Shown: positions 1 to 32,000, counted from the stretch's first letter. The stretch: DNA of 32,000 nt from Candidatus Saccharimonadota bacterium (GCA_965229705.1 OZ245922.1:540001-572000), one strand, 5' to 3'. The notes: generated by a model from the sequence alone, not told the origin. Numbers and translations are program-made.

Positions 1-922
1 TGATTTTATGCTTTGATTGAGGTGTTGTATGATAATATACATACTTTTTCTTTTGAATATATCCTGAGAGCTTTACTCCGTCTTCATCATAAAGTATGTT
101 ATCAAAATACTTAGGAATTACGCTTTTTGAATAACTTATTGCCTTTATACCATTTACTTTCTCAAAAAGCTCTTTCGATATAATAGGTTCATATCATGGA
201 GTATTTATAAGAGCCTCTTGTCATCAAAACTTTTGAAGTCCATAATACTTCACATTCCTTAACATATTTGAAACTTTCTGACTGTCCCATTTTGTACCAC
301 TTTCAGAAGCCAAAAACTCGGCAATAGGTTTAAGAGCTATCTTTTGACTCCTCATTATAAAAGCCCTTCTTACCAAATCAGCCTCTTTTTCTATTACTTC
401 TATTCCTTTACTCCCCTTTTTAATAGTTATATTCTTATATCCAAAAGGAAACTTAGAAAGTACTTTTCAAGATAAAAGAGCTGTCTCCATATTCTTTTTT
501 ACCTTTTTACTCCGAAGAGAGTTATCAAGCTTCGCCATTCATAACTGTTGCCATAACATATTGATGGCAAAATCATCTTCTGAGCCTATAAGTCTTCCAT
601 TTACATATAGTCCTTTTATACTTCAAGAACGAAGCATAGTAGTAAAATTTGCTGTATCTATATCATCTCTTGAGAGTCTGTCTGCTTCGTCAATGATTAT
701 GTAGTCTACTTTTCAACTTTTTCAAGCTTCTAGTAATCTCTCAAAGCCCTTCCTTGTACCTGATTCTTTCGCGCTCACGCTTTCAACTATTTCATCTAAA
801 ACAATAAGTTCAAGACTTGAGGCAAGGTCTCTACACTTTTTTAACTGCGTAACATGAGTATTTTGCTGTCTTCACTCTCTATCAGTCGATTTCCTACAGT
901 ATATTATTGCTGTTTGTTTCAT
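1..922 (-). CDS. Large serine recombinase (resolvase catalytic domain plus recombinase domain); 3' end runs off the window
   Basis: ATG at 922-920. I checked every codon: the frame is open to position 1 in table 25, with nine in-frame TGA and no TAA/TAG. N-terminus is MKQTAIIYCRKSTDRE (Y-x-R-x-S catalytic serine motif). Also ...VDYIIIDEADRLSRDD..., then recombinase-domain-like ...WDSQKVSNMLRNVKYYG... Confidence 0.8.
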
Positions 923-1182
923 GCTTCGTTTTGCTCAATTTTAAAAAGTTGATTTGGAGAACATTTAAATGCTCAGAGGAGTCTTCATATTGTCTCAAAC
1001 TCTATTTTTACCGTCTTTCATTTTCTCATATTCCATAATGCTTGATAACTAATTCATGTTTCTGATTCAAGCCATCTAAGATTTCTATTTTTCTTATCAA
1101 GAAGTGATTGTATATTCAGAAAAACTTTCATAAATAATATGCATAAATATATGTACTATATTATATCTATAGATGATATATT

Positions 1183-1217
1183 ACAAAATAAAAACCCTCA
1201 TGAAAAATGAAGGTTTT
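1183..1217 (-). terminator. Rho-independent terminator after the His/Met-rich lipoprotein gene
   Basis: Inverted repeat AAAACCCTCAT/ATGAAGGTTTT (1191-1217, one mismatch). On the minus strand it is followed by a T-run (plus-strand A-run 1183-1195). It lies about 20 nt past the TAG stop at 1239-1241. Confidence 0.6.
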
Positions 1218-1238
1218 ACTCTAAATTGGAGTACTTTT

Positions 1239-1604
1239 CTATCTATGCTCGTCAGCTCCATGCATCTCTACATCTTCTCCATCATGAAATTCTTTCATAT
1301 GTTTTTCATCTTCTGTCATTTCATCATGGTTCATCATTTCCTTATCATCTTCTATCATATGAGAGTCGTCTGACATATCCATTTTTGAATGGTCCATACT
1401 ATCTGAACCATGACCCATCTTTAAATGGTCTTCAATAGTCATGTTCATTCGAGCAGCAGCGTCTTTTTGCTCTTTATATTCTTCAAGCGAAAGACCGTAT
1501 TTTTCTGCTTGCTGTGACTCTGTAAGAGGTGCTTCTGTTTTTCCACAAGATACAAGACCAAGTGAAAGAATAGCAATAAGACCGATAATAATAATTTTTT
1601 TCAT
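1239..1604 (-). CDS. Small lipoprotein, His/Met/Asp/Glu-rich (putative extracytoplasmic metal-binding protein)
   Basis: ORF-track ORF 1239..1766 trimmed to the Met at 1604. Signal peptide and lipobox MKKIIIIGLIAILSLGLVSC. Mature part is ...MGHGSDSMDHSKMDMSDDSHMIEDDKEMMNHDEMTEDEKHMKEFHDGEDVEMHGADEH. Genuine TAG stop. Sits immediately downstream of the RND pump. Confidence 0.75.
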   Translation of the reverse strand: MKKIIIIGLIAILSLGLVSCGKTEAPLTESQQAEKYGLSLEEYKEQKDAAARMNMTIEDHLKMGHGSDSMDHSKMDMSDDSHMIEDDKEMMNHDEMTEDEKHMKEFHDGEDVEMHGADEHR

Positions 1605-1698
1605 AGTAATATGATAATAAAATAAAAAATATAATAGTTTCTTGATATTCACTTTATGGAGGAATGCAAGAATAATTTTTGTCATACATAGGAAAATT

Positions 1699-4600
1699 TT
1701 AAGAATTAGTACATCTTTCACGAAGATAAGAAAACAATATCGGAAGTATAAAAAGTGTGAGAACAATAGAGCTAATAAGTCATCCTACTACCACTATTGC
1801 AAGTGGTTTTTGAAGTTCTGCTCAAGCCCCAGTTGCCCATATCATAGGAAGTAGTCCTATAATAGAGGTAAAAGCTGTCATAAGTATAGGTCGGAGACGA
1901 AGCATTGCTCCACTTACTACTGCATCGTGAATATCGTTTTTTGAGATTTTTACTTCTGATAGTTCTGCATTATCAAGAGTCTTTTCATCCATAAGTGGAA
2001 GTCCAAACTTCTCCCGAAAAGCATTTTCAAGGTAGAGTATCATCACAACTCACGTTTCAACTGCATTTCAAAAAAGAGCGATAAATCATACCCACACAGC
2101 AACAGAGAAGTTAAATCATGAAATATAGAGAGCAATCACTCAACCTATAAGACTAAAAGGTATAGAAAGAGCCACAATACTCACAAGTCCTCCATCTCGA
2201 TATGCAAGAAAAAGAATAAAGAGAATGATGAAAATAACCGTAGGAATAACTATTTGTAGAGTTTCCTTTGCCCTGAGTTGATTTTCATATTGTCATGCCC
2301 ACTCTATATAATATCACTCTGGAAGCTGAAGGTTTTCATCAATATATCTTTTCCCATCTTCCACAAAACTTACTAAATCTACTCATTGTACACTCATTTG
2401 TACTGCAGAACGAATAACCCCATTTTCACTATTTATTATTGCTGGACCGTCTTCTAAGGCTATATCTGCAACTTGCTGTATAGTAACTATTCCTGAACTT
2501 GAAGGTATTTCAAGACTTTTTATATCATCGATACTATCTCGAAAGTTATTTTTTAGCCTGATTTCAATACCATAATTTTCTCTTCATGAAATAGAAGTAG
2601 AGACTGTTTTTCCTCATACTCACATAGCAATAGTATCAAGCACATCTCATTTTTTTACTCCGTACTGAGTCAGCTTTACTTCATCTATATTGAGTTGTAA
2701 ATACTTCAGTCAGGTAGTACGAATAGCAGTTACTCAAAAACCTCATGGAACATTTCACATAAGATTCTCAATCTGTGTAGCAAGTCGTTCAAGCTCGATA
2801 GGGTCATCTCAAAATACCTTTATCCCAACCTCTGCTCTGATACCTGTAGAAAGCATATCAATACGCCCTATAATAGGCTGAGTGAAACCATTCCAAAGAT
2901 TTTCTATTCAGATATTACGGTTCATTTCTCATATAATATCTTCTTTTGTTACTCAAGGTCTCCACTCTGATTTTGGTTTGAGAGTAATAATTGTTTCAAG
3001 CATCGCCATAGGTGCTGGGTCTGTTGCAGTTAATGCTCTCCCTGCTTTTCCAACGACTTTTTCAACTTCAGGTATTTCAGCAATGATTCTATTTGATTCT
3101 ATCAGTATATCCCTCGCTCTTCTATCACTTACATCAGGAAGAGTCATCGGCATATACATGATACTTCCTTCATCAAGAGGAGGCATAAATTCACTTCCGA
3201 TTCTTGTAAAAATGATTCCTCATACAATGAGTAAAAGACAAGAAGTTATAAGAAATACTTTTCTAAAATTTAGAGCGAGTAAAAGAAGCGGTTTATACAA
3301 ATTTTGAAAGAATCTTACAATTGGAATTTCATTATCTCTTTTGAGCTTTCCTTTTAAGAAAAATACACAAAGTACAGGTACAAGAAAAAGAGAAGCTATA
3401 AGTGTCCCAAGCATTGCAAACATATTTGTGAAAGCAAGTGGAGTGAAAAGCTTTCCTTCTTGTCATGTAAGAGCAAAAATAGGCACAAAAGAAAGAACGA
3501 TGATAAGTATTGCAAAGAGAAGTGGTCAGGCTACTTCTTTCGTAGCTTCTGTGACAAGTTTTGCTCTCTCTTTTAAAGATAATTGCGCCTTTCATAAAAG
3601 CCTATTATATGCGTTTTCCGTGACTACTATTGAAGCATCTACCATTGTTCCTATCGCAATCGCAATACCTCAAAGAGACATGATATTTGAAGAAATGCCT
3701 AAAAGCTTCATACATAAAAACGTAATCAAAACTCATACTATCAGAGAGACAACCGTAACAAATGAAGCTCAGAAATTCCACAAGAAAAGAAACAGTATAA
3801 AAGCTGTGATAATTATCTCTGCAGTAAGAATAGAAGTGAGAGTATGTATTGCATTTGTAATAAGGTTTGTTCTATCATAAAATGTTTCTATTTGTACTCA
3901 CTCTGGAAGTCATGCCTCTAAAACTTTTATTTTTGCCTTTACGCCTTCGATAACCTCAAGAGGATTTTCTCCATATCGCATAATTACTATTCCTCCTACT
4001 TTTTCCTCATACTGATTTGCGAGTATTCCTCTGCGAAACTCTGAACCTATTTTTATTTCAGCTATATCTCATAACTTTACAGGAATATCTTTATAGTCCT
4101 TGAGATACATGTTCTCTAAATCTTCTTTCTCTTCTACAAATCATAGTGCTTCAATAGCTATTTCTTTTCCTCCTTTATCTATAACTCTCCCTGAAACATT
4201 ATTATTTCCTCATGCAATGATTGCAGAAATTTCCTGAAGAGAAATATCATAATTTTTGAGTTTTAAAGGGTCAATAACTACTTGAAAGTTTTGTTTATAT
4301 CATCAAATAGAAGCAACTTCAGCAACTCATGAAACACTTTCTAATCCTAACTTTACTGAGAAATCTTGAATATTTCGTAACTGTGTGAGGGTATGATTCT
4401 CACTTTCAAGCGTGTACATATATATCTGCCCGAGTCATGTTGCATCAGGTCATAAGACAGGTTTCACTCCATTAGGAAGCTCTGATGATATAAGAGAGAG
4501 TCTTTCGTTTACTCTATCCCTTGCGAAGTATTCGTCTATATTGTCTTCAAAAATAACTGTCACCATAGATATTCCAAGCTGACTCATAGCTCGAACATCA

Positions 4601-4839
4601 CGAACTCATGCAAGTCACTGCATTCAGACAGTAATCGGATAAGTTATTTGATTCTCAATATTTGTAGGAGTTTGACCAGACCATGAGGTCATAACTACGA
4701 CTTGATTTTCAGAAAGGTCTGGAAGAGCGTCAATAGGAGTTTTGTATATTGCAATAGAAGATAACACTACAACGACTCCAAGTATCACAAGTGTAATAAA
4801 AGCATTCTCTATGCAGTATTTTATAAGTTTACCCAGCAT
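1699..4839 (-). CDS. cusA: Heavy-metal efflux RND transporter, CusA/CzcA family (1046 aa)
   Basis: Four ORF-track fragments (4839, 3423, 3186, 2046) share one frame and are joined only by TGA codons. N-terminus ...[38 protein letters not shown] matches CusA ...[37 protein letters not shown]. Also [20 protein letters not shown] and [20 protein letters not shown] (CusA Met-cluster region). TAA stop at 1699-1701. Length matches CusA (1047 aa). Confidence 0.93.
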
Positions 4840-4845
4840 ATTTTT

Positions 4846-6684
4846 TTACTTAACAAATATTGGAGTAGTGACAACCTTGAGTGTCTCATCAAAATCTCCT
4901 GTAATAAGAGAAAACTCTCCGTCATCTGAAACTATGACAATATCCTTTACTCAGAGCTTTCCGTTATCTTTTTTATAGTATAAGATAGTTCGCTCTCACT
5001 TGTTATAAATAGTAGAAGTTGGAACTTTATAATGAAAAGATTCTGTTTCGAAAGAAACACGCAAAGTACTTTTATTTGAGAGATTGATACCCTCATTTAC
5101 TTTTGCTTGAAGAGTAATAGAGCGAGTTGCTTCATCTATTTCAGGAGAAATTCTATAAATGGTTCAGGAAAAAGTTTTCCCAGAATCATGTGAAGAAAAA
5201 TATACCTCTTGTCATATTTGTATTTTTCATTGAAGTGACTCTGGTACATAAAACTTAATTTCTTTTTTGGTAATACGTGAAAGGGTGTTATCTACTCAAG
5301 AGACTCGAAATACTTCTATACCCTCAGAAATCATTTCTCCTATTTCAATATCTCGTTTTGATATTGTCCCACTGAAAGGAGAGATTATCTTATAGTCTCA
5401 TGATGCGACATATTCTTTATTGAGGTCTGATTTTGCAACTGCAAGGTCATTTTGAGCCTTTGTGACTTGCCTACTCTCACTTGCTATAAGAAGTTCTTTT
5501 GATTTCCTCAAAGTTTCTAACTCAGAAGTAAGTTTTTGGGTCTCAAGAGATTTATCACTTTCAAGTGTTGTATATTTCTGAGATATAAAAGCTATATTTT
5601 CTTTTTGCTTTTGTACATCATCTTTGAGTCTCTCTATTTTTTCTTGCTGAGATGATAGAGTAAGTTTATAAGCTGACTGAGCATCAATATATCACTCATA
5701 TATAGATTCTCACTCTATCTCGAGAGAGTTTATTATAGTTATATAGGCATCTATTGTTGATTGAGGAGTATCTCATGCAGAATGAACAGTATTTTTAAGA
5801 GCGAGCTTTGTAAGAGAGATTATACTTTTTATACTTTCATATTTCTCTTCAATATTATCTAACTCTCATCATTGGTACATTTGAACTTCTGTTATGAGGC
5901 TACCTAGTACTGAACTATCTTTTGCAGAGAAAAGATAATGTAGGTCTCATTTTTGTATCTCTGTATAGTCTACATCATTTTCTTCTCAGATATATATGAT
6001 AGGAATAATTTGAGAATAAATATCTTCTATCTTGATATTCAGTACAGTGAGTTTTTGTTCTATATTTCTTTTAGCATCAGATAAAAGTTGCTCTTTATTT
6101 TCCTCCGCATTTTTGAGACTATTTTCAAGAGTAGTAAGACTTTGGAGTGCAAGAGTATATTCACTTCCTCTACTTTCCTCTGAGTCTCAAACTTGTGCTA
6201 TTTTCGCATCATAGTTTTTGAGTGTTTCTTGTAAAAGCGTTTCTTTTTCTTGTATCTCTTGCTCAAACTCTGCTATTTTTGCATCAGATACTTTTTTTGT
6301 ATCTGAAAGTATTTTACTATGAGAATCAACAATAGTAGATTTATACGATATATTACTTGATGATTGACCTTCTACTCAAGGTTCAAAGAGTATTGCAAGA
6401 GTTTGACCAGCATATACTTCGTCTCCTATATCTACAAGTATATCTTTCACTAAAGATGCTCTTCTTGGATAGATACTTGCAATATCATTACGTATAAATT
6501 CACCTGTGAAAAAGTCGTTTTTTACAACTTGTTCTGGGAAAGTATGTTTATAGGTTTTTTGAGAAGTCTTTTGAGTAGATATAGAGGTATCGTCTTTCGT
6601 ATCTCAAACTCATAGATAGAGATATGCTAATAGTGCTATAAAGAATAGCATACATCCTATAACTGCTCAGATTATTTTTTTCAT
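4846..6684 (-). CDS. RND membrane-fusion (periplasmic adaptor, HlyD-family) protein with an unusually long coiled-coil (612 aa)
   Basis: ATG 6684, TAA 4846-4848, length divisible by 3. N-terminal TM MKKIIGAVIGCMLFFIALLAYLYL. Lipoyl-like ...VDIGDEVYAGQTLAILFEP.... About 300 aa of heptad-like K/E/Q/L-rich sequence. Beta-barrel part ...YKIISPFSGTISKRDIEIGEMISEG...TIYRISPEIDEATRSITLQAKV. The stop lies 6 nt before the cusA start. Confidence 0.85.
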
Positions 6685-9765: not shown

Positions 9766-10392
9766 ATGAAAATCTTTTTTTGCCTTTTTCTCATACTTCT
9801 CTTTACCCTCTCATCGTGTAATTACTCTCACACAAGCACGCAAGAAACAACTTCCCCAATCACAAAAAGTGAATTATCTCAAACATCTCACATAGATACT
9901 CACTGGGAAAAAGTAATAACACATCTCTCCGGTTATGAACTCAAAGAATTTGATATACTGGAAAAATCTTCTCAGTGATGATGAGCAAAAGTTTTCTCCT
10001 CATGAGAAACAGGCATGATAGATTTGATAGAAGTTGAATACTTATGAGAAACCGGAAAAAGGAAAATACAATACCTCCTCAAAAATGAAAAAATCGTCCT
10101 TATTACAGACGAGCAACACTCTTATAATATGCCTATTTACTGGGATCAAGAACTCCTATGAGAAGAAGCTCAAGGCTATGGAGAAGAAGATTTTTTTCAT
10201 GAGACAAAAACACAAATACACACCAACTCTTATTATCTTTCTGATAAAGAAATACTCTTATGGAAGAAAAATAGCACTCCTCAAAATGAATATATATATA
10301 AAGATGCAAATGTATCTGCCGATCTTCCATGGCTTTTTGAAGAGTTTGAGTGAGTCATATGAGAGTATCACAATACTATAGAAGTGAAATAA
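9766..10392 (+). CDS. Lipoprotein, hypothetical (208 aa)
   Basis: MKIFFCLFLILLFTLSSC lipobox. ORF-track ORF 9766..9978 continues through TGA-TGA-TGA (9976-9984) and five more TGA codons to TAA at 10390-10392. Confidence 0.75.
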
Positions 10393-10669: not shown

Positions 10670-10695
10670 ATCTCGCAAATTTTGCGAGATTTTTT
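10670..10695 (+). terminator. Bidirectional hairpin terminator (tRNA-Arg / LysM-CHAP gene)
   Basis: ATCTCGCAA(A)T(T)TTGCGAGAT perfect palindrome followed by TTTTT. Overlaps the stop of the convergent gene. Confidence 0.6.
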
Positions 10696-11899
10696 AGTCT
10701 TTGAGATAGATATATCATTGTATTGTTCTATCGTTTCGTGGGACTTTTCGAGTAGTTACCTCATTGAGACGACGGTAATTCATATCAGATACAATAATAT
10801 GACTCGGCGTAATATCTATCACAATCGCTACATGACCATAATATGGATTGTATCCTCTCCCCTCAAACTGAACAATAGCTCCTACCACTGGCTCACTTCA
10901 TGTCGGGTGCCCTTTTTCCTTGGCATTTCTTATCCACTGATTAGCATTTCCTCTCCAGTCAACATTTTTATATGACGCAACATACCAGGTACAATTCCCC
11001 CATGATCAAGAATATGGTTTTCTCCAAATAAACTGAAATTTTCCTTGAGTATTCACATACTCGCTCTGAGCATATTGTGCAAAGCTATATCATCAAGTAT
11101 TTTGCGAAACGCTGCTTGAAGAACTATAAGTTTTCTGCGGTTTCGGTGTTTTTTGAACCGATTTTTTCATTGCTCCAGGAATAATAATGGTATCTCAAAT
11201 ACGCAAATCACTGGCACTTAAAAGAAGATTTTGGCGCATAATATCTTCCTGATCCACTTCATAGCTCACTGCTAAACCTCAGAGGGTTTCTCACGAAGAT
11301 ACTGTATGAATTACCCCTGAAACAGGAGGGACATCTATAATATCCCCTGGATGAATAATGTGCTTTTCATCAAAATCATTCGCCCAATACAAAGAATTTC
11401 TTGTGATATTGAACTTGCTTGCAATCGAAGCAATACTTTCTCCATTTTTTACCTCATACTTAACTATCTCTCTTGTTCCTGAAACATCTCTCTCATTTTC
11501 TGTCATAATAGCGTTTATATGAAGATATGAATCTTTTGATTGAATAAATACTTCCCCATCTCACACTGTTTCATCTTCTCAAAAATATAAAGAGGAAATA
11601 ATACTTGACTGATCTATATCACGCCTGTCAAAATCTGTGACCGAAGTATTGTATATAAAGCTGGCAAAGCTTGGATATATCGGAAGAGTGCATACAACAA
11701 AAAGAGAAAGAAGTTTGATGTTCCTTTTTCCTATATTTCATGATGTGTTATAAATCTTTTTTTGTAAAACACGCGAATGTCTGGCTATTCGGGCTTTGAT
11801 ATTTACTTTTGGAGTCAAGATGGAAACTTTAGGGAATATTTTCTCATATACTCTATGATTGTACTGCTGATCCTTTATAGAAACTGAAAAAAATCTCAT
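10694..11899 (-). CDS. Peptidoglycan hydrolase: N-terminal membrane anchor, two LysM domains, C-terminal CHAP domain (401 aa)
   Basis: Frame checked codon by codon from 11899 to 11504. LysM 1: YEVKNGESIASIASKFNITRNSLYWANDF...IHPGDIIDVP. LysM 2: HTVSSGETLGGLAVSYEVDQEDIMRQN...LRIGDTIIIPG. CHAP: ...GNCTWYVASYKNVDWRGNANQW...PVVGAIVQF...YGHVAIVIDI.... TAA at 10694-10696. Confidence 0.88.
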
Positions 11900-11951: not shown

Positions 11952-12263
11952 CTATGCTATTGAGCTGACCTCAAGCTGAGTAAGAGATGGACGAAATCCT
12001 GTATTTCTCATATATCTCTTTTTTGACTTCATTTTAAAAACTCTCACTTTATCTCATTTCTTTTGTTCAAGTACTTTGAACTCCACCTTTGAGTCTTCAA
12101 CCTCTGGAGTTCATATCTTGACATCTTTTCACTCAAGATCAGAAACAAGAAGCGCCTTTACATGCATTTTCTTTCCTGCTTCAACATCTTGTTTTTTTAC
12201 CTCGATGATATCTCCTTTTTGAACCATAAATTGGTTTCCTCAGATTTCTACTACTGCTATCAT
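11952..12263 (-). CDS. rplU: 50S ribosomal protein L21
   Basis: MIAVVEIGGNQFMVQKGDIIEV...KVRVFKMKSKKRYMRNTGFRPSLTQLEV matches the L21 pattern (MYAVIETGGKQYKV..GD...K.RRK...R..GHRQ..T). 103 aa, TAG stop. No rpmA follows. Confidence 0.9.
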
Positions 12264-16048: not shown

Positions 16049-16164
16049 ACGAGATATGTAAAAAATATATGTAGATGAGTATAGCTGATATGAAGAGTTT
16101 TCAAAGTTGTTTTCAGGCGTTTTTTTGATACAATGCCCCATATTATTTTTAGCAATACAAACAA

Positions 16165-16821: not shown

Positions 16822-17856
16822 ATGGAAACAACAAAAAAAACAAAGATCATTTTCACTGGAGGTGGGAGTCTCGGCCATGTTACTCCACTGGTGAGTATTT
16901 TTCATTATTTTGGAACAGAAAACTATAACTATATGTGGCTCTGAGAAAGAGACTCGTTTGAATCAGAGTGTGCTGAAAAATACCAGATAGATTTTCATGA
17001 AATATCTGCTGGAAAGATTCGTCGCTATTTTGACTGGAAAAACTTTTATGAACCACTCAAAAATCTGACAGGTATTTTTGAGGCCTGGTATTATATGCTC
17101 AGATATAAAGGAGATATCATTATATCAAAATGAGGTTATGTTGCTCTCCCTGTATGTATTGCAGGATATATTCTCAGAAAAAAAATATATATCCATGAGT
17201 CAGACTGTGTCATGTGACTTACAAACAGGATATGTTCTCGGTTAGCAACAAAGGTTTTTACAAGCTTTGATCTCAAAAATACAAAAACTCTTCATACAGG
17301 ACACATCATGAATCCTCTCATGCTTGACGGGCTAGAAAGTATCTCAAAAAAAGAAAATACTCGACTGCAAATACTCGTCATTGCCGGAAGTCAGTGATCA
17401 GTCAAAATATGTGAAACACTCGAAAAGATACTCCCCGATTGCCAGGAAATAGATTTTCATATTCTCACGGGGAATATCAATAATCAAGATCTTTTGGATT
17501 CTTTATGAAAATTTACTAATACAAAGCTCTATACGCAACTTCCGCAAGAAGAGCTTGCACTGCTCTATGTTCAGTCAGATATTGCTATCACGAGAGGAAG
17601 TTCGACTCTTTGGGAACTCATGTACTTTGGGATTCACTCTATCATTATCCCTCACAAATATACCGGAGGAAATCATCAGCAGAAAAATGCTGAATACTTT
17701 CAAAAAACCTATGGTTCTGATATCCTTGATGAAGACGATCAGTTGGAGCTGGAGCTTTTTCGAAAACTCAATAGTTATAAAAACTTACGAAAGTCAGGTC
17801 TCAACCTTGAGGGATATCTTGATGGAGTAAAAAATATTGAAAAAGAAATATTATAA
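16822..17856 (+). CDS. murG: MurG-type glycosyltransferase (UDP-GlcNAc:lipid I GlcNAc transferase), 344 aa
   Basis: Whole frame verified line by line. ...KIIFTGGGSLGHVTPL... (G-loop), ...ILVIAGSQGS..., ...ITRGSSTLWEL...IIIPH..TGGNHQQKNA.... TAA at 17854-17856. Confidence 0.85.
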
Positions 17857-17942: not shown

Positions 17943-19325
17943 ATGACACAAAAAATACACGCTATTCTCGATAATATCTCAGCTCAATCAATGCTATGAA
18001 AACTCCTTATACCCATAATGGTTCTCTACTTTATTATTGTATGAGTAGTGTTTTTTAGTGGAGGAGCAAGTCTGGTTTCTCTCGCTCTTATCAGCGCGGC
18101 AACACTCGCTTTCTACCTTGCTATCAATATTGGAGCTAATGATGTTGCCAATAATATGTGACCTGCCGTAGGATCAAAAGCCATCAGTATCTGATGAGCC
18201 ATACTTCTCGCATGAATATTTGAGGCAAGTGGGGCGATAATCGCTGGAGGCGATGTGGTAAAAACTATTAAATGATGAATCATCGATGCTTCTGAGGTAG
18301 AAGACATGAGAGTATTTGTATCTATTATGTTGGCAACACTTTTTTGATCAGCACTTTGGATCAATATTGCTACCTATACAAGGTCTCCTGTTTCGGCAAC
18401 ACACTCTGTTATCTGAGGACTTATCGGAGCAGGATTACTTGCTCTTGGTCCAGACGCTATTGCTTGGGAAAAAATATGACATATTGTATCTAGTTGGATT
18501 ATCTCTCCCGTATTATGATGAAGTATTGCAGCATTTTTTCTTTGGAGTATTGATACCACTATTATGAAGCAAGAGTCTCGTCATGATGCTGCAAAAAAAT
18601 GGGTGCCAGTATATGTTGCTGTGATGAGTGGAAGTTTTTCATCATACCTCCTACTGAAATGACTCAAAAAAATCATAAATATACAAGAAGTCTATGCTCT
18701 CCTTATCGGTATTTTCATTGCCTTGTGTACATATGTTTTTGTCAAAAAGCTCTTAGTGAGATACGATAAGCTTTTTAAAAATTCAAAAAAATCTATCAAC
18801 TCTCTCTTTAATATTCCTCTGGTATTCTCTGCCGCGCTCTTATCATTTGCGCATGGAGCAAACGATGTAGCAAACGCTATAGGTCCATTTGCTGCTATCT
18901 ACGAGACTGTTTCTTCTGGAGATATTATTGCAAGTGCTGGAATACCCTTATGGATCATGATTATATGAGCTCTTGGTCTTGCTATTGGTCTTGGTGTTTA
19001 TGGAAGTAGTCTTATTAAAACTGTTGGAAATGAAATCACCAAGCTCAATCAGATTCGTGCCTACTGTGTAGCTCTCTCAGCTGCGATTACAGTGATCATT
19101 GCCAGCTCCTTGGGTCTTCCTGTAAGTTCTACGCACATTGCGATTGGATGAATATTTGGTATTTGATTTTTTCGAGAATGGGAAAAGCGGAAAAAAGGAA
19201 AAGATAAAGTCTACCTGGATAAGTCTATGCTCAAGCAAATCATCCTTTCTTGGATAGTAACTCTTCCAGCTTCTGCATTTATTGCAGGAATGAGTTTCAC
19301 GAGTATCATTTACTTTATGAGTTAA
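17943..19325 (+). CDS. Inorganic phosphate transporter, PiT family (460 aa)
   Basis: Both PiT signature repeats are present: ...INIGANDVANNM[TGA]PAVGSKA... and ...FAHGANDVANAIGPFAAI.... Also ...LPVSSTHIAIGG.... Multi-TM. TAA at 19323-19325. Confidence 0.9.
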
Positions 19326-19630: not shown

Positions 19631-20512
19631 ATGTGATCCGACCTCCAGCAAAAGCTCCATGGTTTTCAGAGTCTTTCCCTCAAAGAACTCACTCAAAAAG
19701 CCTGATTTATGAAACGTATTGAAAAGAAGTTTCTCCTCACAGAAGAGAAGTTCCTCGAACTTTTGGAACATTTCTCAAAACAGTTTGATATTCTTGCAAT
19801 AGAAAACAAGAAAATATTCTCCTATGATAACATTTATATGGATACCAAAGACTATGACTTTTATTATCAACATGAAAATGGAGACAATAATAGAACAAAG
19901 GTCCGATCAAGAAACTATAAAGATAGTGAAAACCTCACCTTTTTTGAATATAAAAATAAAGTCAACGGAGTGACTCATAAAACTCGTTGCCGTATTGATA
20001 CGAGTGAACACGGAAAAATGTGCCCCAAAAAAGAAGGATATTTTGCTGGTATCTACTCAAAAGTATATGGTTGTGAAAAAGCTCCCCAGATTTCTCCTGC
20101 GCTCCAAACTCGATACAAGCGATGTACTCTTGTGCACAAAGACTCTCTTGAGAGACTCACTATTGATTTTCATATTGAGACTCGTGATCTGAGAAATAAT
20201 ACCAAACCCTTTATCAAAATGGAAAATCTTGTTATCATTGAAAGCAAGTCTCTTCTCGAGCTCTCACCAAGTCAAAAAATCCTTGCCAGCCATGATATCT
20301 CATGAACAAAATCTTGTAGTAAATACTCTCTCGGAGTCATATATGCTGGACTGGCTGAGAGATGGCAACACTTTGAAAATACAATGCAAGAAATTGCTGA
20401 AATAAAAAAAGACTTTCTTCATAAACAACGAGTCTCTCATCAAAAAACATCCCTTCAAAAGACAAAAAATCGTTTTTTTAAAACCCCTCTACAAACAAGT
20501 ATGGTTTCATAA
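19631..20512 (+). CDS. VTC-domain (polyphosphate-polymerase-like, triphosphate-tunnel fold) protein, 293 aa
   Basis: ORF-track ORF 19709..20305 extends upstream through TGA to the ATG at 19631 and downstream through TGA to TAA at 20510-20512. ...SLKELTQKAGFMKRIEKKFLLTEE...YDNIYMDT...RTKVRSRNY...FFEYKNK.... The domain call is from my memory of the VTC family pattern. Confidence 0.65.
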
Positions 20513-21925: not shown

Positions 21926-21934
21926 ACCTGTAGA

Positions 21935-22148: not shown

Positions 22149-22700
22149 TTAAAAATAGCTATAAGGCTCGCTATAATGCTTAAAAAGTTTTTTTGAGCCT
22201 CCTAACATCTGTTGGTGCTTCTCGAGTCAGAGCTTGTTTATCCATTTTTGGATTGCTTCACCATCAGGTCACTCTATCTCCAAAAACTCTGGGATATTCT
22301 CATAACTATCTAGATCAAACTCCATATCTTCCAGACTATAGGATATTCGATACTTTTTCTTTTCTCTTATTTTTGAGAGCCCATATTTTTCGAGTACTTT
22401 GGCAAAGCTCTCTACATTGGTTATAGGTGTTTCATGTTCATCTTTTGCTATGAGTTGCTCCTCTTTCCCTATTGTTTTTCGCTTATTTTTAATAGTGTAT
22501 ATATGTTCTTCTCCTTTTTTTCTGAGACGAAACATGCGACCATTTGCCTGCATTTTGTCTTTTTGTTCTCCTTTTTCAGGAAAATCATAATAAATATCAT
22601 GAATATATCACTCAAAAGTTTTTTTGGCTCAGAGTGAAAGAAGTCTTGCCACTAGCTCTTCCCTATTGATTTCGAGAATCTTTATTTCTTTTTCGAGCAT
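22149..22700 (-). CDS. CYTH-domain protein (CyaB-like class IV adenylate cyclase / triphosphatase fold), 183 aa
   Basis: MLEKEIKILEINREEL (ExExK signature). ...FRLRKKGEEHIYTIKNK...EHETPI...KKYRISYSLEDMEFDLDSYENIPEFLEIEG.... ORF-track ORF 22269..22553 is in frame. TAA at 22149-22151. Confidence 0.75.
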
Positions 22701-22734: not shown

Positions 22735-24894
22735 CTAGAGAGACTCAACCCTCTTCAATCATATTCTCCCCTTTTCAAGATCTACTTGCAAAATCTCAAA
22801 GTCTACCACATCATCAACTTTTACCACATCCTCTACCTTCATTACTCGTTGCTGTGAAAGTTTTGAGATATGTATCATCCCAGAATTTCCTCCTCGAAAT
22901 TCTACAATTGCTCCAACTCCATCAATGATTTTCACCACTCTTCCTGTTCACATATATCATACCTCTGGATTCCAAAGAATCTCCTTTATATCACTGATAG
23001 CCGCTTTCCCTGAAGACTGATCTTTTGCAGTAATCGTTGTCATGCCATCATCATTGATCGATATCACGACACTATGATCTGCTTGGATTTTTTGAATAGT
23101 TTCTCCACCTCGACCGATAACTTCTCTGATTTTTGCTTCGGGTACCTGCATGCTCATAATCAGAGGAGCATATGGAGAGAGTTGCCGAGCAACCTCAGGC
23201 TGCACCTTGAGCATTTCTTCGAGGATATAACCCGTTGCCTGTTTTGCTTGAGAAAAAGCTTCTTCAAACACCTTCATTTTGAGTCACTTGATTTTTACAT
23301 CGAGTTGCATTGCCGTAATCCCTTCAGAGCTTCGTGCAAGTTTAAAATCCATATCTCACAAAAAATCCTCCTGCGCCTGAATATCTGAAAGAATCGTATA
23401 TTCTCCTTGTTCTTCATTATAGATCATACCCATTGCCACCGCTGAAACTGGTCTCTTAATTGGTACTCCGGCATTCATCAAGCTCATAGTCGAGCCACAT
23501 ACCGATGCCATAGAGCTGGAACCATTACAAGTTGTCACTTCACTCACAGTTCGTATCATATATGGAAACTCTTCTTGTGAAGGAAGTACTGCTTCGAGAG
23601 CTCGTTCTGCGAGTCTTCCGTGTCCTATTTCTCGACGCCCAGCTCCTCGCATCATACGAACCTCTCCAACAGAGTATGGAGGAAAGTTATAATGATGAAT
23701 ATATCTCTTATGTGTTTCTTCGAACATTCCGTCAACAATCATCAAATCTTCTGGACCTCATAAAGTACAGATATTGAGTACCTGCGTCATTCCTCTTTGA
23801 AAAAGTGCAGATCAATGTGTTCGTGGTAAGAGTCCTACCTCTCCCCTGATATTTCTCACATCTTGAGGTTTTCTTCCATCGAGCCTTGTTCCTGACTCAA
23901 GAACATTTTTCCGCATGACTTCTTTGACCCTTTTATATACCATTGCTCCTACTGCCGATGTATCATCATCCTCTGCATAATCTCACTGAGCTATCAAGTA
24001 CTCCGTCACCTCAATATCAAAAGCATCAAGCACTTTTTGAAATCATTTCTTACTTTGGTTATATAAACTTGCAAGTTTCTCCTCTGTGAGATAGGATGAA
24101 ACCTTTTCTTGCAGACTCACATCTGGCAGATTATAACTTGGCTGTATTGCATTGATTGCTCCATAAGTTGTTGCAAAATCTTTGAGAAAATCAAGCTGCG
24201 CCTCACAAAGCTCTTGGATCAGTCCATGAGCATAAGTAAGAGCATGGAGCATCTCATCTTCACTCACCTCTTGCGCTCCAGCTTCGACCATTGTGATAGC
24301 ATCTGATGTTCCTGCAACTACAAGATGGAGACGAGCATCTGATTCTTCAGTGAAGTTTGGATCAAAGATATATTGCCCCTCTGAGTTTACAGCAATCTTG
24401 ACTCATGCAACTGGTCACTCAAAAGGTGCCCCAGCTATCAAGAGTGCGAGAGAAGCGCTGGTAATTCCCCATGAACCTTGTTCAGAGACTCCATCACTTG
24501 AGAGAACCGTCGCGATAATCTGTGTATCATTAATCATTCCTTTAGGAAACATCGGTCGAATCGGTCTATCTATCATGCGTGATGTCAGAGTCGCTCCATC
24601 ACTTGGTCTGGTTTCTCGCTTCATAAACCTATTCCCTCCTATCTTTCCTGTAGCATAGTATTTTTCTTGATAATCCACAACGAGTGGGAAAAAATCTGCT
24701 TTTTCGTTGAGTCATACTTCTTTGATACCTGCTGTTGTGAGAAGTATATTTCAGAGCTCGTCACTCATAGTGACTGATCCATTGGCGAGGAGTCAAAGTT
24801 TGCCTGTCTCAAAAGACAACTTCTTCCCAGCAATAGTATAAGTCTTTTTTAGTGGCTGCATGCTTGCAGCATTTGTATCTGTTAGTCCTTGCAT
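22735..24894 (-). CDS. pnp: Polyribonucleotide nucleotidyltransferase (PNPase), 719 aa
   Basis: Four ORF-track fragments lie in one frame. ...[25 protein letters not shown].... ...[10 protein letters not shown]...[15 protein letters not shown].... ...EDFL[TGA]DMDFK.... KH domain ...[16 protein letters not shown].... S1 domain ...[16 protein letters not shown].... TAG at 22735-22737. An alternative in-frame start at 24861 gives a more canonical N-terminus. Confidence 0.95.
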
Positions 24895-25120
24895 ATACAA
24901 AAATAAATATATAAAAATGATTTTTTGAAGATATTTATGAAAACATATGCAAAACCCTTATGACATGTATCTCATAAGAATCTCAAAATAAGCCTTCGAA
25001 ATATCTCAAAAAAATCGTGAAAAGTATATCAAAAAAAGAAAAAAGGAGAAATTTTTGTACAAGCTTGAAAACAATAATGAGTTTTGATAATAAAATATGA
25101 AGTTTCTCTATATTTTGTTC

Positions 25121-25696
25121 TTACTCGTCATCATCAAAATCATACACCACATCGCTTGATCATTCATGCACAGGTTTTGGATCTGTTTCTCAGGCAGCGT
25201 TAATAAGTCAGAGTGGTTCAGGAGGTGAGAGACTCGTATCTGGAGTATAACTTCATACAACCTTCGCTATAGCCTCTCCTTGTATATTCTCAATACTTCC
25301 AGCTAACTGATATCTAATCTCTCACGAAAGCCCCGTCACTCATAATCTTGGATACTCATTTGTAAGTGGATCCATATAATCTGGTCACAAAAGCTGGAGT
25401 CAGACAAAATCTATATCTCATGCCCGATAATGAGACTTAGCTGGCTGTCATCAAAAATACGCTCATGGAACTTCCTGACCCGACACGACATACTGCGAGA
25501 TATTTTCTCATGATGCTATTTTTAAAGTAATCACTTTATTAATAGATTGCAGGTTAGAAATGCGAGTTGAGTTACGAGCCTCGACAGTGTAGTTTGAAAA
25601 ACTGATAAATCCTAATACAGATAATACTGATATAATCAGGATCATCACTAACATTTCTACAAGCGTAAATCCATGACTATAATAAAAATGCTTCAT
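25121..25696 (-). CDS. Type IV pilin-like protein (prepilin N-terminal cleavage/methylation motif), 191 aa
   Basis: MKHFYYSHG|FTLVEMLVMILIISVLSVLGFISF. Every codon from 25510 to the TAA at 25121-25123 was translated. Confidence 0.8.
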
Positions 25697-25786
25697 AGAA
25701 ATAGAAATATATAAAAATATAATATTATTTTAATAATAATAAAAATTTTTATTTTTTGAAGAAAAATGTGAAAAAAAATATTTTTT

Positions 25787-26353
25787 CTAAAAATCATACA
25801 CCACATCACTCGATCATTCATACACAGGTTTTGCTTCAGTTTCTCATGCAGCATTGATAAGTCAGAGTGGTTCAGCAGAAGAAAGACTTGTATCTGGATC
25901 ATAGTTTCACAGTATCGTAGTATAGGCTGATCCATCTGCAGCTTCAAGACTCATGGCAAACTCATACTGCTCTTTTCATGCTGTTCATAAAACCCCTAGT
26001 CTTGGATATTCTTCTCGTTTTGGATCTTCAAACTGCTCTATATCAGCAACACCTATAGCTCGAAAATCTATTCCTCCTGCCTTGTAATCCGTTCCCGCAG
26101 GCTGTCATCAAAAATACGCTCATGGAACCTCTTGACCAGGAACAACATACTGCAAAAGATCCTCTCCAGCAGACATTTTAACACTCACGAGTTTTTGAAG
26201 AGATGTGAGAATCGTTACTCTCGAAGTATTACGAGCATCAAGCGCATATCATCTATACGCAATAAAACCAATCAGTCACAATATCGCTATGAGTGTCAAA
26301 ATGATGACAACTTCAGAAACATGAAAGCCGCTTAGTCTGTTTTTGTTTCTCAT
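25787..26353 (-). CDS. Type IV pilin-like protein, paralogue of 25121..25696 (188 aa)
   Basis: MRNKNRLSG|FHVSEVVIILTLIAILGLIGFIAY. Shares ...QYVV.GQEVPGAYFGGQPA...EYPRLGV...DTSLS..EPLGLINAAGET..KPV.EGSSDVVYDF with the downstream copy. TAG at 25787-25789. Confidence 0.8.
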
Positions 26354-26363: not shown

Positions 26364-27455
26364 TTATTTTTTTAAAAGTTTTTTCATGGCTCATAAGCCT
26401 ATTTTTGTCTTTTTTCTTTTTTCTGGTTGAAACTTGATAATTCATTTCTCTGACAAAAATATAGCAATAGGTCGAGTAGCATCTATGTGAGCGAGCGTAA
26501 TATTAACCATTACCATTATCGGAACTGATAAAAGCATCCCTATAGGTCACCATACCATTCACCAAAAAATAAGAGAGAATAAAATCACTAAAGGAGAAAG
26601 ATTGAGCTTATTTCACATAAGTCGAGGTTCTATAAAACTTCATATAAAGAGCTGTGATGCCGTCATCAAAAATAAAAATACGCTTGTCAGTGCAAGCGAC
26701 TCAAACTGAACAAGAGAAAATAATACCGGAAAAGTAACGGCAATAATCGAACCAATATTTGGGATATAGTTGAGTAAGAAGATCAAAAAAGCCCAAAATA
26801 TAAAAAAATCTAATCCAAAAAAGAACATAATCAGAGCACTCAAAAGCGCGATACATATACTCGTAATCGTCTTAATCATAAAGTAGGATTTCATATCTTC
26901 TTGTATTTGCTTTACTGCATCAAAAAATCGAGATTTTTCTCAGCCAGTAATGAGACCAATCTTTTTTTCAAACACCTTACTTTCAAGCAAGATAAATATT
27001 GTAAACATCAGTATGAGACCGGCATTTTTTACAATACTTGTGGCAATACTTGCAAGACCCGTAAGAACCGCTGAAAAATCTATGCTTTGAAATCCATTTT
27101 CGAGCATCTTTCAGGCATTGAGATCATATTTTTCTGAATATCGAGTAAACATACCCAAAAGTTTTTGTTCATATTCTGGTGCTTGAGAGATAATTCATCC
27201 AATATTTGTATTGATAATCTGCGCAACAGCATAAAAAATACTTCCTAAAAGTATCAGTGTAAAAATAAATGAAAGAGGTTTTGGGATACCTCGTTTTTGA
27301 AATGCGCTGGAAACAGAAATAATGATAAATGACAAAAACACCGCTAAAACAAAAGGGATGAGGAGTGATGATCCGATATAAAGGACATATATCAAAAATC
27401 ACAGTGTCAGAATCGTAATATTTATGAGTATCAGTGTATGCGCTTTATGAAACAT
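26364..27455 (-). CDS. AI-2E family transporter (PerM/UPF0118), 363 aa
   Basis: ...FLIFLLNYIPNIGSIIAVTFPVLFSL...[43 protein letters not shown].... ORF-track fragments 27395 and 26894 are in frame. TAA at 26364-26366. Confidence 0.88.
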
Positions 27456-27478: not shown

Positions 27479-29299
27479 TTACTCTACCTGCCAGTAGTTT
27501 CCTCGAGAATACAACTGTGAACCATCTGGAGAGGTAATAGCTGGAAAAATAACATCGCAAGATCTCATACTTGCATAAAAATCAACACTCTGATCGCATG
27601 GACAGCTATCACATACTGCTCCTCAGAGAATACTCGCACTTTGGTTATTATGCAAACAATTTTGAGAACGAAATGTTATTGGCTGACAGACTCAATCTTG
27701 AGAACAACTTGTCTCGTCACTTGACGAGCATATATAGCCCTCAGGACATGAACAGTTTGGTCAGCACGAACTTTCATATACAGGACAGCCACTATTGTTC
27801 AGCGTTCAAAATACTCAAGGACAACGATCATCACAGTCATTTATCCCATCACTATCAGAGTCTCATCCACAAACATCTCAATCGTATACTTCTATTACGG
27901 CAGTTGATGATGAAGTTTTTCCATCCCTATCTCTTACCTGTAAGAGAACTCTGTATATGCCCTCATTTCTATAGAGATACGATACTTTTGATCATATAGC
28001 TTGTGCTCCCTGTCAAAAGTTCCATTCATACTCATATGGAGCTTGTCATCATTTCACTCTAGGAGTAAACTCAACAAAAAGAGACTCATATCATGCTATA
28101 GGGCTCGCATTTACCGAGACGCTCAATCAGCTTTCTCCCACATCTCGAGTAACTACCGTACTATACACCTCACTACTATTCCCACATATATCAACAACTC
28201 TACTATACACCCTCCATGTTCCTTCTCATGGAAATATAAAGTTATCGAGATATGGTGTATAACGAAAGATTTGCTGTCCTGTATCTGTATTGTGAAAGCG
28301 CCATATATATCATACTTTTTTATCAATACCCAACTCACATGTTGTTTCTCCATCAGCAACAAAGTCATAGATATTACCTGCATCATCCAGAGAAGAGAGA
28401 CGACAGTTTATGCCATCTGATATTTTACATTGCTTATCTTGTATACGAATCTGCAATGCTAAAGCTTCATCAGTTACTTCTTTACAGTTATTTGATTTGA
28501 GAGCGATATATGCCATACGAAGAAAATCTTCTTTACTGACGAATGACTGCGCGTTGATATTTCCTCAGCTATCAGGTCCTAGGAGTTTGAGTATTTTTTT
28601 ATTTCCAGAGCTATCATACTCGTAGATTTCGTATTCGAGAGCTTTTCGCAGGTAGCCGTAAAATGTATAAGGATTTCACTGCATATCTGTTGGGGAAACA
28701 TCATTTCAGAGTTTTTCTGTGATACGACCAGCAGAGATATCGCGTATTACTTCTTGGTTTTGTTCTATTGTAAAAATTCATGAGTTTCGTAAAAGGACCG
28801 CAACTGCCTCTTCTAGCTTAATAGTATTTTCAGGGCAAAAGGGTCTTTCTAGAGGATTTGATTGACCATTTTGACAACTCTCTCCTATACCATACCCTCG
28901 CACAGCATTATTTGTATCTGCCTCTGCAATACAGTAAAAATAAGGATTTTCTGGTGTTACATCAAAGTATATTTCTCTCTGAGTATACTTCTCTATATAA
29001 GAAAAATCTGTATGAGGCAACATGCATCTCTCGCACACAACCTCCATAGATATTCCTACAAACTCGTCTCTCTGTAGGGGTTTGTCTGCTCAAAATAGAT
29101 TATCTTCTCCAGGAATAATCATTCCTCTATCATAGAGTGTTTGCAACTCATCTCTATACTGATAGTCTTCGTCTATATCAGAAAAAATATCCTCTACAAG
29201 ACTCCTCTCAGCAAATACTGAGGGAAGAGAGAAAAAGAGTATGATACTACAAATACTTATCTTGAGGAACATCTGAGAAATAAAAAAAGATATTTTCAT
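27479..29299 (-). CDS. Large secreted surface protein: SLH-like N-terminal module, PKD-like domain(s), thrombospondin-type-3-like Asp repeat, Cys-rich C-terminus (about 606 aa)
   Basis: Codon-by-codon translation from 28777 to TAA at 27479-27481. Signal MKISFFISQMFLKISICSIILFFSLPSVFA; the ORF is open upstream to ATG 29338. SLH-like: FSDIDEDYQYRDELQTLYDRGMIIPGEDNLFGADKPLQRDEF. PKD: ...LSVSVNASPIAGYESLFVEFTPRVKGGQAPYEYEWNFGQGAQ...YRNEGIYRVLLQVRDRDGKTSSSTAVIEV. Also GGDSDSDGINDCDDRCP. About 20 Cys in the last 130 aa. Confidence 0.8.
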
Positions 29300-29394: not shown

Positions 29395-29850
29395 TTACAC
29401 CATAGCATACATCACAACTCCTGCTGCAACAGAAACATTCAAAGACTCCTTATATCATAACATCGGTATCATAAAGGTCTTATCAGAAATATCCAATACT
29501 TCTGCCGAGATTCACTGGACTTCGTTTCCGAAAATAAGGGCAATATCTTTTTGTGTTTCATACGCCAGTTGTTTGTAATCGAGAGCGTCTTTTGTGAGTT
29601 CGATACTGTATATCTGTATATTTTGATTTTTGAGTGTATGTACAAGCTCCTTAGCGTTTTTATAATACTCCCAGTTAATCCTCTTTTCTGCACCAAGAGC
29701 TGTTTTGGAGATTTCTCTGCGAGGAGGACAAGGAGTATAACCACAAAGAAATATTTTTTCAAACCCTGCTCCATCAGCATTTCGAAAAATAGCTCCAACA
29801 TTTTGTAGTGAACGAATGTTTTCGAGTATGATATACTTTTTTACTTTCAT
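29395..29850 (-). CDS. SpoU/TrmH-family RNA 2'-O-methyltransferase (151 aa)
   Basis: ...ILENIRSLQNVGAIFRNADGAGF...IALIFGNEVQ[TGA]ISAEVLDISDKTFMIPMLGYKESLNVSVAAGVVMY.... TAA at 29395-29397. Confidence 0.85.
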
Positions 29851-30095: not shown

Positions 30096-30794
30096 ATGTA
30101 TAGAACTTTTTTGAAAAAAACTCCAAAGACTCAGGGTTTTACTCTGGTAGAACTAATCACGGTAGTAACAATCCTCGCTGTACTCTCTGCTATAGGATTT
30201 GTCTCTTTTTCTGGGTATCTCGCAGGAGTCAGAGATACCAATAGACTGTCACAGATCACATCTATATATGACTGACTGGAACTTTATTCTACAAAGAATG
30301 ATCTGCCTATGCCTGATGACGCTGTAGAGATACAGGACGGAACCAGTCTCTTATGATATCAAGGAAATATTGGAGCAAATATTCTCGATATCCTCGACTT
30401 TAGTCGAGGAGGTGTTGATCCCAAAGATGATTCATATTTTGTGTATTATCTCTCTGCAGATAAGAATGATTTTCAACTTATGGCGTTTCTCGAGGAAGAA
30501 CAAAACGTCCCAACCGTATTTTTTCCTCAGGCATATGCTAAAGACTATAGTAATCTTTATCCAGTCGTATTTGGAGAAAAGCTTGGAATACTCCTTGATG
30601 AGACAACGAAGACTCCTGTCCATGAGATAGAGGCAGTCAAGACGGCTGGAGCGTTAGATTTAGATGGAAGTACAGAGAGTTATACTGCCTACTTTAAAAA
30701 TGATGATACCGCAACGGATACAGGAGAAAATCTATGAGAGACGATAGAGGAGGAGAGAGAGGAAGGGGCGAGTACTTCTGACAGTATCGAGTAG
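30096..30794 (+). CDS. Type IV pilin-like N-terminal module (232 aa), the upstream half of a split pilin::FISUMP gene
   Basis: MYRTFLKKTPKTQG|FTLVELITVVTILAVLSAIGFVSF.... ORF-track ORF 30441..30737 is in frame. Ends ...GENLGETIEEEREEGASTSDSIE at TAG 30792-30794. Confidence 0.8.
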
Positions 30795-31551: not shown

Positions 31552-31560
31552 GGATTTTTG

Positions 31561-31592
31561 AACGCCGGGGTGTAGCCTGGGGTTGTTTTTTT
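31561..31592 (+). terminator. Probable terminator after the FISUMP ORF
   Basis: AACGCCGGG / CCTGGGGTT imperfect stem (one mismatch, one G-U pair), followed by GTTTTTTT. Confidence 0.45.
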
Positions 31593-31672
31593 AAGAAGAA
31601 CTATATTCACACACAAGATTCTTTCTTGAGTCAACGAAAAAAACTCTTGTTCTATTGTATTTTCGTGAAAAA

Positions 31673-31701
31673 GAAGTATTTTTCTCTTGGAAAATACTTT
31701 C
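31673..31701 (+). promoter_or_regulatory. Conserved inverted repeat in the leader of pilin::FISUMP copy 2
   Basis: GAAGTATTTT (31673-31682) pairs with AAAATACTT(T)C (31691-31701). Counterpart of 29923-29950. Confidence 0.45.
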
Positions 31702-31715
31702 TTAATTATTTCTTT

Positions 31716-32000
31716 ATGAAGCCATCTTTCTTAAAAAAAACTCAGGGTTTTACTCTGGTAGAACTGATCACGGTAGTGACTATCCTTGCTGTACTTGCAG
31801 CTATAGGATTTGTCTCTTTTTCTGGTTATCTCGCAGGAGTACGAGATACCAATAGACTTTCTCAACTTACATCTATCTATGACGGTTTAGAGCTCTACGC
31901 GACAAAGTATGATCTGCCTATGCCTGATGATGCTGTAGAGATACAAGACGGATCGAGTCTCTTAGGATACCAAGGAAATATAGGAGCAAATATCCTCGAT
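31716..32000 (+). CDS. Type IV pilin-like protein, tandem paralogue of 30096.. (5' part only; runs off the window)
   Basis: MKPSFLKKTQG|FTLVELITVVTILAVLAAIGFVSFSGYLAGVRDTNRLSQLTSIYDGLELYATKYDLPMPDDAVEIQDGSSLLGYQGNIGANILD. About 90% identical to copy 1. Confidence 0.85.
   Translation, partial: MKPSFLKKTQGFTLVELITVVTILAVLAAIGFVSFSGYLAGVRDTNRLSQLTSIYDGLELYATKYDLPMPDDAVEIQDGSSLLGYQGNIGANILD

Follow-up and report, generated by a model that had tools for sequence, protein, structure and literature searches.

We analyzed a 32,000-nucleotide (nt) stretch of DNA (Candidatus Saccharimonadota bacterium, GCA_965229705.1 OZ245922.1:540001-572000), here called the window, and found that the in-frame TGA triplets of its protein-coding genes behave as glycine codons. 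In our judgment it is nearly certain that the window derives from the chromosome of a bacterium of the Gracilibacteria type (BD1-5 lineage) whose genetic code is NCBI code 25; the GTDB class of this lineage is JAEDAM01 (preprint 10.64898/2026.05.24.727570). In such a genome, UGA would be an ordinary glycine codon and translation would terminate at UAA and UAG only. The same assignment, TGA as glycine under table 25, had been proposed by an earlier examination of the nucleotide sequence alone (the sequence-only reading), and it was supported when we tabulated the residues that standard-code homologues carry in the TGA columns, where tryptophan was not the aligned residue.

Reading frames across TGA

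The GC content of the window is 35%. Read with the standard code, the window has no stop-free stretch longer than 199 codons, and its longest open reading frame (ORF) under table 11 encodes 198 amino acids (aa) (19709-20305), which is exactly the ceiling that the sequence-only reading had given. When TGA is treated as a sense codon, stop-free stretches of 1048, 740, 656, 622, 484, and 483 codons appear; the same treatment of TAG or TAA yields longest stretches of just 234 and 246 codons, respectively. The lengthening of ORFs by read-through is specific to TGA and far beyond chance. The gene fragments previously taken for parts of single proteins indeed lie in one frame each. The fragment starts 4839/3423/3186/2046 of the efflux pump CusA are spaced by multiples of 3 and share the frame of the read-through ORF 1699-4845, as do the starts 24678/24291/23745/23277 of polynucleotide phosphorylase (PNPase) with the ORF 22735-24957 and the starts 16141/15541/15028 of histidyl-tRNA synthetase (HisRS) with the ORF 14744-16195.

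To leave the amino acid at TGA undecided, we masked every TGA as X when translating the read-through ORFs, and full-length Pfam matches ran across the TGAs in these masked translations. The families matched were ACR_tran, PHO4, five PNPase domains, HisRS, MurG (two domains), HlyD, LysM together with CHAP, and PAP2, and further VTC, CYTH, AI-2E, PKD, Fib_succ_major, N_methyl pilins, and a serine recombinase. A search of the remaining gaps added three genes, encoding the ribosomal protein bL21, a TrmH/SpoU methyltransferase, and a TGA-free lipoprotein rich in His and Met. Together with two tRNA genes, the read-through ORFs of these genes account for 88% of the window. All of the long genes are interrupted by in-frame TGA and never by TAA or TAG.

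The amino acid at TGA

To assign an amino acid to TGA, only homologues from standard-code organisms with a normal Trp content were compared, and two NCBI-annotated Gracilibacteria entries were left out. The CusA/CzcA-type RND efflux pump (1699..4839, minus strand; 1046 aa; Pfam ACR_tran, E value of 1.5e-204, residues 6-943) contains 42 TGA and 48 GGN codons and was aligned with 58 such homologues, the named ones including Peregrinibacteria, Nomurabacteria, and Kiritimatiellales. Glycine was the majority residue in 30 of the 42 TGA columns, 23 of which were invariant glycines. When all cells were pooled, glycine made up 74.0% of the TGA columns and 75.3% of the protein's own GGN columns, compared with 5.1% of all other columns. 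Tryptophan occurred in none of the 2436 cells of the TGA columns and reached 82.5% in the seven TGG columns.

PNPase (22735..24894, minus strand; 719 aa), which carries 14 TGAs and five PNPase Pfam domains, was compared with 125 standard-code representatives of 36-47% identity, obtained by a search of a representative library. The best 120 matches of a word-indexed search were not used; all of them were at least 60% identical, the named ones were all Gracilibacteria, and they were inconsistently translated, with W contents of 0.1-6.0%. Glycine was the majority residue in 6 of the 14 TGA columns, with 84, 124, 110, 125, 108, and 112 of the 125 sequences carrying it at positions 160, 361, 379, 513, 537, and 646, respectively. 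At position 164 glycine (43 sequences) and alanine (45 sequences) shared the majority, and the other seven TGA columns were variable or gapped. Tryptophan accounted for 0.2% of the cells in the PNPase TGA columns.

The two proteins were then pooled and the columns in which a single residue reached at least 80% were considered conserved. Among the 56 TGA columns, 37 were conserved, and these comprised 35 glycines, 1 lysine, and 1 alanine, with no tryptophan, cysteine, or selenocysteine (Sec). Control codons in conserved columns returned their expected residues (GGN, 50/53 Gly; TGG, 5/5 Trp; AGA, 16/16 Arg).

Solved structures of six proteins gave a consistent picture, since 28 of the 47 aligned TGA columns carry glycine in one structure or more and none carries tryptophan. 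For PNPase, 7 of the 14 columns were glycine in at least one of the PDB entries 5yjj and 4am3. Its TGAs at 23358-23356, within EDFL[x]DMDFK (the LGDMDFK motif), and at 23286-23284, within VKIK[x]L, both on the minus strand, lie where the sequence-only reading had placed them. HisRS (14744..16141, minus strand; Pfam tRNA-synt_His and HGTP_anticodon) carries glycine at five of its seven TGA columns in 1qe0 and/or 1kmm and tryptophan at none; its minus-strand TGA at 15217-15215, within VVAS[x]GRYD (motif 3, GGRYD), likewise agreed with the earlier description. The glycosyltransferase MurG (16822..17856, plus strand; five TGAs; N- and C-terminal Glyco_transf_28 domains) shows glycine at four of five columns in 1f0k, 7d1i, and 3s2u. 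In bL21 (11952..12263, minus strand; matched to ribosomal L21 chains in the PDB with an E value of 4e-14), all four TGA columns are glycine in at least one structure, and the one in KI[TGA]TP is glycine in all three. Both TGA columns of the SpoU/TrmH-family RNA 2'-O-methyltransferase (29395..29850, minus strand), located in the GNE..G and IPM.G motifs, are glycine in 1zjr, 1v2x, and 7edc. The PiT/PHO4 phosphate transporter (17943..19325, plus strand; 17 TGAs; Pfam PHO4, 1-350 of 350) aligned with 6l85 at 15 TGA columns, of which six are glycine, three alanine, and none tryptophan. The TGA at 18159-18161 in GANDVANNM[x]PAVG of this transporter had been correctly located but wrongly described as an invariant glycine, the residue being alanine in 6l85, the only solved PiT structure.

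Genetic code 4, used by Mycoplasmatales and some insect endosymbionts, would make TGA a tryptophan codon. It predicts exactly the same ORF structure as code 25, and the public protein collection (NCBI and ENA sources) does show W for every one of the 56 TGAs in the contig's own CusA (P0001) and PNPase (P0121). We nevertheless consider this code exceedingly unlikely. Besides the Trp counts given above, from the CusA and PNPase cells to the conserved and structure-aligned columns, and the predominance of Trp in the genuine TGG columns, code 4 would raise the overall Trp content from the 0.77% contributed by TGG alone to 3.68%. The sequence-only reading had argued against code 4 from the retention of TGG at Trp positions; the Trp of the CTWYV motif in the CHAP domain is indeed encoded by TGG, but organisms with code 4 keep TGG as well. 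What decides the matter is that TGA columns do not align with Trp, and code 4 is rejected on this ground.

If the TGAs were instead genuine stops, the affected genes would be pseudogenes or products of assembly or sequencing errors, or would depend on selenocysteine insertion or programmed read-through. Nothing beyond the in-frame TGA itself speaks for any of these, and we give them practically no credence. The interruptions are caused by TGA only, with 205 TGAs in 7031 codons and always in frame; the conserved TGA columns are almost uniformly glycine and never Cys or Sec, and the TGA pattern is common to orthologues in dozens of related genomes. No selenocysteine insertion sequence and no Sec-type long-arm tRNA turned up in the tRNA and Rfam scans of the window.

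Duplicated genes within the window provided a comparison between TGA and GGN codons. The type IV pilin-like protein copy 1 (30096..30794, plus strand; Pfam N_methyl) and copy 2 (31716..32000, plus strand, running off the window and recognized by paralogue alignment) are identical at 85 of 95 residues. As the sequence-only reading had proposed, the TGAs at 30273-30275 and 30354-30356 of copy 1 pair with GGT (31884-31886) and GGA (31965-31967) of copy 2. In a second pair, B1 (25121..25696, minus strand; Pfam N_methyl) and B2 (25787..26353, minus strand; identified by paralogue alignment), which contain 13 TGA versus 6 GGN and 11 TGA versus 10 GGN codons, respectively, eight TGAs are common to both copies. 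Among eight one-sided TGA columns, four face GGA or GGG and the rest face TCT, AAC, GCT, and ATA, and none faces TGG. The window thus harbors two separate tandem pairs of pilin-like paralogues (25121-26353, minus strand; 30096-32000, plus strand).

The same exchange was seen between genomes. Trp-rich orthologues of CusA carry W in 61.5% and G in 26.5% of cells at the query's TGA columns, W in 46.5% and G in 39.1% at its GGN columns, and W in 92.4% and no G at its TGG columns. TGA and GGN therefore interchange as synonyms in this group, and TGG interchanges with neither.

Codon counts over the 18 Pfam-supported genes (7031 codons) showed that TGA is the commonest glycine codon, with 205 of 531 occurrences (39%), ahead of GGA (181), GGT (70), GGG (56), and GGC (19); its earlier description as a major glycine codon was accurate. 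Glycine amounts to 7.55% of residues if TGA is included and to 4.64% without it. The share of TGA among glycine codons is 17-25% in the genes for PNPase, HisRS, MurG, the VTC-domain protein, and pilin copy 1, and 39-68% in those for CusA, HlyD, PiT, the other pilins, and most of the remaining Pfam-supported genes. Of seven hypothetical genes, six have a share of 37-80%, including five at 60-80%. The predicted run of three consecutive TGAs (TGATGATGA at 9976-9984) was found in the frame of the ORF 9733-10392 (plus strand), which contains a hypothetical lipoprotein gene (9766..10392, plus strand) with no Pfam or PHROG match.

Some observations weigh against the glycine assignment. About one third of the TGA columns fall at variable positions where the homologues do not carry glycine; such columns are to be expected, because the GGN codons of the same gene behave likewise. 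The terminators of the 17 complete Pfam-supported genes (13 TAA and 4 TAG) are partly circular as evidence, the ORFs having been delimited by TAA and TAG; independent support for the termini comes from protein lengths that match those of homologues (CusA, 1046 versus 1040-1055 aa; PNPase, 719 versus about 700-770 aa). Furthermore, a tRNA-Gly(UCA) was not found in the 32-kb window, where tRNA-Arg(GCG) (10581-10656) and tRNA-Gln(UUG) (14071-14145) are the only tRNAs, also according to Rfam.

Lineage, decoding of UGA, and known codes

Among the best matches, all named ones to PNPase at 61-77% identity and the named ones to CusA at 72-73% identity are Candidatus Gracilibacteria, and these best matches and their names support an affiliation of the window with the recoded Gracilibacteria clade. 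From this lineage and the literature, we expect that UGA is decoded by a dedicated tRNA-Gly that has UCA as its anticodon and carries the Gly identity elements G1:C72, C2:G71, G3:C70, and U73. The decoder would be about 74 nt long and close in sequence to GCGGATATGATGTAATTGGTGTAGCATAGCAGACTTCAGCTCTGTTCGTACGGGTTCGAGTCCCGTTATCCGCT. On the same grounds, release factor 2 (RF2) would have been lost, leaving no competition at UGA. Where bacteria have reassigned UGA, RF2 loss has been described as a hallmark (preprint 10.64898/2026.05.24.727570), and two species labelled 'Gracilibacteria' keep UGA as a stop and encode RF2 (PMC8629427).

Species-representative genomes were scanned for such a tRNA with the pattern G1-C2-G3-G4, U8, A14, U33-UCA, T-loop, and C70-G71-C72-U73. 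The scan returned at least 120 loci, and among the matches listed at least 79 were AT rich and showed a recoding signature, defined as long ORFs being few or absent without TGA read-through. ARAGORN identified a tRNA with the anticodon UCA in all 79 recoded loci among the matches listed, and 76 of these tRNAs were exactly 74 nt long. ARAGORN assigns its 'SeC' label to any UCA anticodon, and the 74-nt tRNAs are of ordinary length. Since the glycine identity elements were built into the pattern, only the lineage distribution of the matches counts as evidence. The titles among the recoded loci listed include Absconditabacteria, SR1, Gracilibacteria, and Vampirococcus lugosii, and in the recoded relatives listed tRNA-Gly(UCA) stands first in a conserved array, UCA-Tyr(GTA)-Ala(TGC)-Arg(TCT)-Glu(CTC)-Leu(TAA). 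These results support the standard tRNA mechanism for the lineage.

The tRNA-Gly(UCA) itself is highly conserved (e.g., L043:3332-3405 and L048:3214-3287), with the anticodon loop C-U-UCA-G-C and a G at position 37. Many records titled 'Candidatus Peribacteria' (L003, OZ246420.1; L048, CP060225.1; L104; and many loci from 'binchicken' metagenome-assembled genomes) also combine the TGA-recoding signature with the tRNA-Gly(UCA) array, and the Peribacteria label at NCBI probably fails to show that they belong to the table-25 clade. Among the matches listed were also eight loci that lack the recoding signature and contain tRNA-Gly-like genes with an anticodon loop CTTCAA(A/C), that is, with UCA in place of the typical UCC: L069:596-666 (Streptococcus), L070:2860-2933 (Thalassotalea), L029:269-341, L089:507-580, L008, L111, L001, and L015. 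Some of these nonrecoded tRNA-Gly-like genes sit between genes for tRNA-Tyr and tRNA-Thr, and L023 and L120 are similar with other loop sequences. These genes might represent natural alleles that suppress UGA, or else errors of assembly.

We regard as very improbable a variant in which UGA encodes glycine here without the dedicated tRNA-Gly(UCA), in which RF2 is kept with context-dependent termination, or in which a further rare codon is reassigned; nothing in the data suggests any of these. A specific form of the last possibility is an extended code of the Absconditabacteria type, with UGA as glycine plus CGA and/or CGG as tryptophan. Reassignment of CGA/CGG to Trp has been predicted in Absconditabacteria, and of CGG to Trp in some Gracilibacteria (Shulgina & Eddy 2021, PMC8629427). 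In favor of this extension stand its prediction in a sister group and the rarity of CGG in the window, which was sampled in three columns only. Those three columns nevertheless have Arg as the majority residue, and the one that is conserved is Arg; for AGG, 4 of 4 are Arg. CGA was sampled in 18 columns, and 9 of its 11 conserved ones are Arg and none is Trp. Moreover, CGA is common (0.84% of codons), unlike in genomes that reassign it. An extension to CGA or CGG is therefore very unlikely. When all codons were tabulated for CusA and PNPase, TGA was the sole well-sampled codon deviating from table 11, and no codon change beyond UGA to glycine appears detectable in the window. The column tabulations led us to reject the CGA/CGG-to-Trp reading, as well as code 4 and the pseudogene and selenocysteine/read-through explanations.

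The code of the window resembles that of the Gracilibacteria/BD1-5 group (table 25) in the reading of UGA as glycine, in having UAA and UAG as its only stops, in an AT-rich genome, and in the use of CGA and CGG for Arg. No difference from table 25 was detectable in the window. With the Absconditabacteria (SR1) it shares UGA as glycine and, as seen in relatives, the same tRNA-Gly(UCA) family and tRNA array; in contrast to the Trp reading predicted for them, CGA and CGG fall on Arg in the window. Table 4 (Mycoplasmatales, Hodgkinia, Zinderia, Nasuia, and Stammera) has in common with it the stop-to-sense change of UGA in AT-rich reduced genomes, with RF2 loss as a hallmark, and gives identical gene boundaries, but it differs in the amino acid, which at TGA is glycine here and not tryptophan.

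Reassignment of UGA to glycine was reportedly described by Rinke et al. in 2013 for Gracilibacteria and by Campbell et al. in 2013 for SR1/Absconditabacteria. It has been established for Gracilibacteria (PMC8629427), and Gracilibacteria/BD1-5 read UGA as Gly (Hanke et al. 2014, PMC4032931). The reassignment is thus already known, with an NCBI table of its own and an established lineage, and the window is one more instance that opens no new question.

Gene content and public protein entries

Next to CusA lies the gene for an HlyD/CusB-type membrane fusion protein (4846..6684, minus strand; 19 TGA versus 15 GGN; Pfam HlyD_3 and HlyD_D23). Directly downstream of these two genes is the TGA-free lipoprotein gene (1239-1604, minus strand), whose product has the lipobox LVSC and a C-terminal region in which His, Met, Asp, and Glu are abundant; this lipoprotein may bind metal in the periplasm as a partner of the efflux pump. 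A phosphate-related neighborhood (17943-22700) comprises the PiT/PHO4 transporter, a VTC-domain protein (19631..20512, plus strand; 3 TGA; Pfam VTC, 1-231 of 235), and a CYTH-domain (triphosphate tunnel) protein (22149..22700, minus strand; 4 TGA; Pfam CYTH, 1-177 of 179). Within it, the unannotated stretch 20512-21350 holds a His/Ser/Gly-rich ORF (20935-21315, plus strand).

A serine recombinase (1..922, minus strand; 9 TGA; Pfam Resolvase and Recombinase; phrog_95 integrase) runs off the start of the window. Blocks of hypothetical genes at 6767-9160 and 12501-13794 (both minus strand) flank tRNA-Arg and precede tRNA-Gln; one of their products, a DUF1353 protein, matches the phage tail assembly chaperone family phrog_1158. 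A PHROGs search with eight proteins, six of them without a Pfam match, gave matches solely for the recombinase and the DUF1353 protein. The recombinase and the hypothetical blocks may be remnants of integrated elements.

Further genes encode a LysM and CHAP cell wall hydrolase (10694..11899, minus strand; 11 TGA; Pfam CHAP and LysM), a PAP2 phosphatase (16165..16818, plus strand; 6 TGA; Pfam PAP2), an AI-2E family transporter (26364..27455, minus strand; 10 TGA; Pfam AI-2E_transport, 5-325 of 327), and a secreted PKD-domain protein (27479..29299, minus strand; 20 TGA; Pfam PKD and PKD_4). A Fib_succ_major-domain protein is encoded at about 31045-31551, between pilin copies 1 and 2.

The Trp found in public entries at the TGA positions of this contig is not confined to its own proteins. 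Among the best 120 matches to CusA, 60 contain 2.5-7.9% Trp and are correspondingly depleted in Gly, and W and G together amount to approximately 9% across the CusA family, whichever translation the relatives received. These Trp-rich relatives are recoded genomes in which TGA was written as Trp. They cannot be used to establish the meaning of TGA, because TGA is already translated as Trp in them. Only two NCBI-named entries among the best 120 CusA matches carry Gly. Programs that use coding density to decide between tables 11 and 4 alone assign table 4 to such genomes (preprint 10.64898/2026.05.24.727570), and the W in the database comes from a pipeline in which table 25 was not applied. Four of the CusA relatives (P0042, P0044, P0051, and P0052) are almost without GGN, P0052 having 7.9% W and 0.5% G; in these genomes, TGA appears to have taken the place of about 90% of the glycine codons, compared with 39% in the window.

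Code 25 is needed to read any gene of the window, table 11 leaving no ORF longer than 198 aa. Useful by-products of the analysis are that the Trp mistranslation of the contig's public entries is shown and that no further reassignment is visible. Translation with table 4 would introduce 205 wrong residues into 7031 codons, placing Trp where Gly belongs, and this mistranslation distorts alignments, hidden Markov models, and structure predictions for the lineage.

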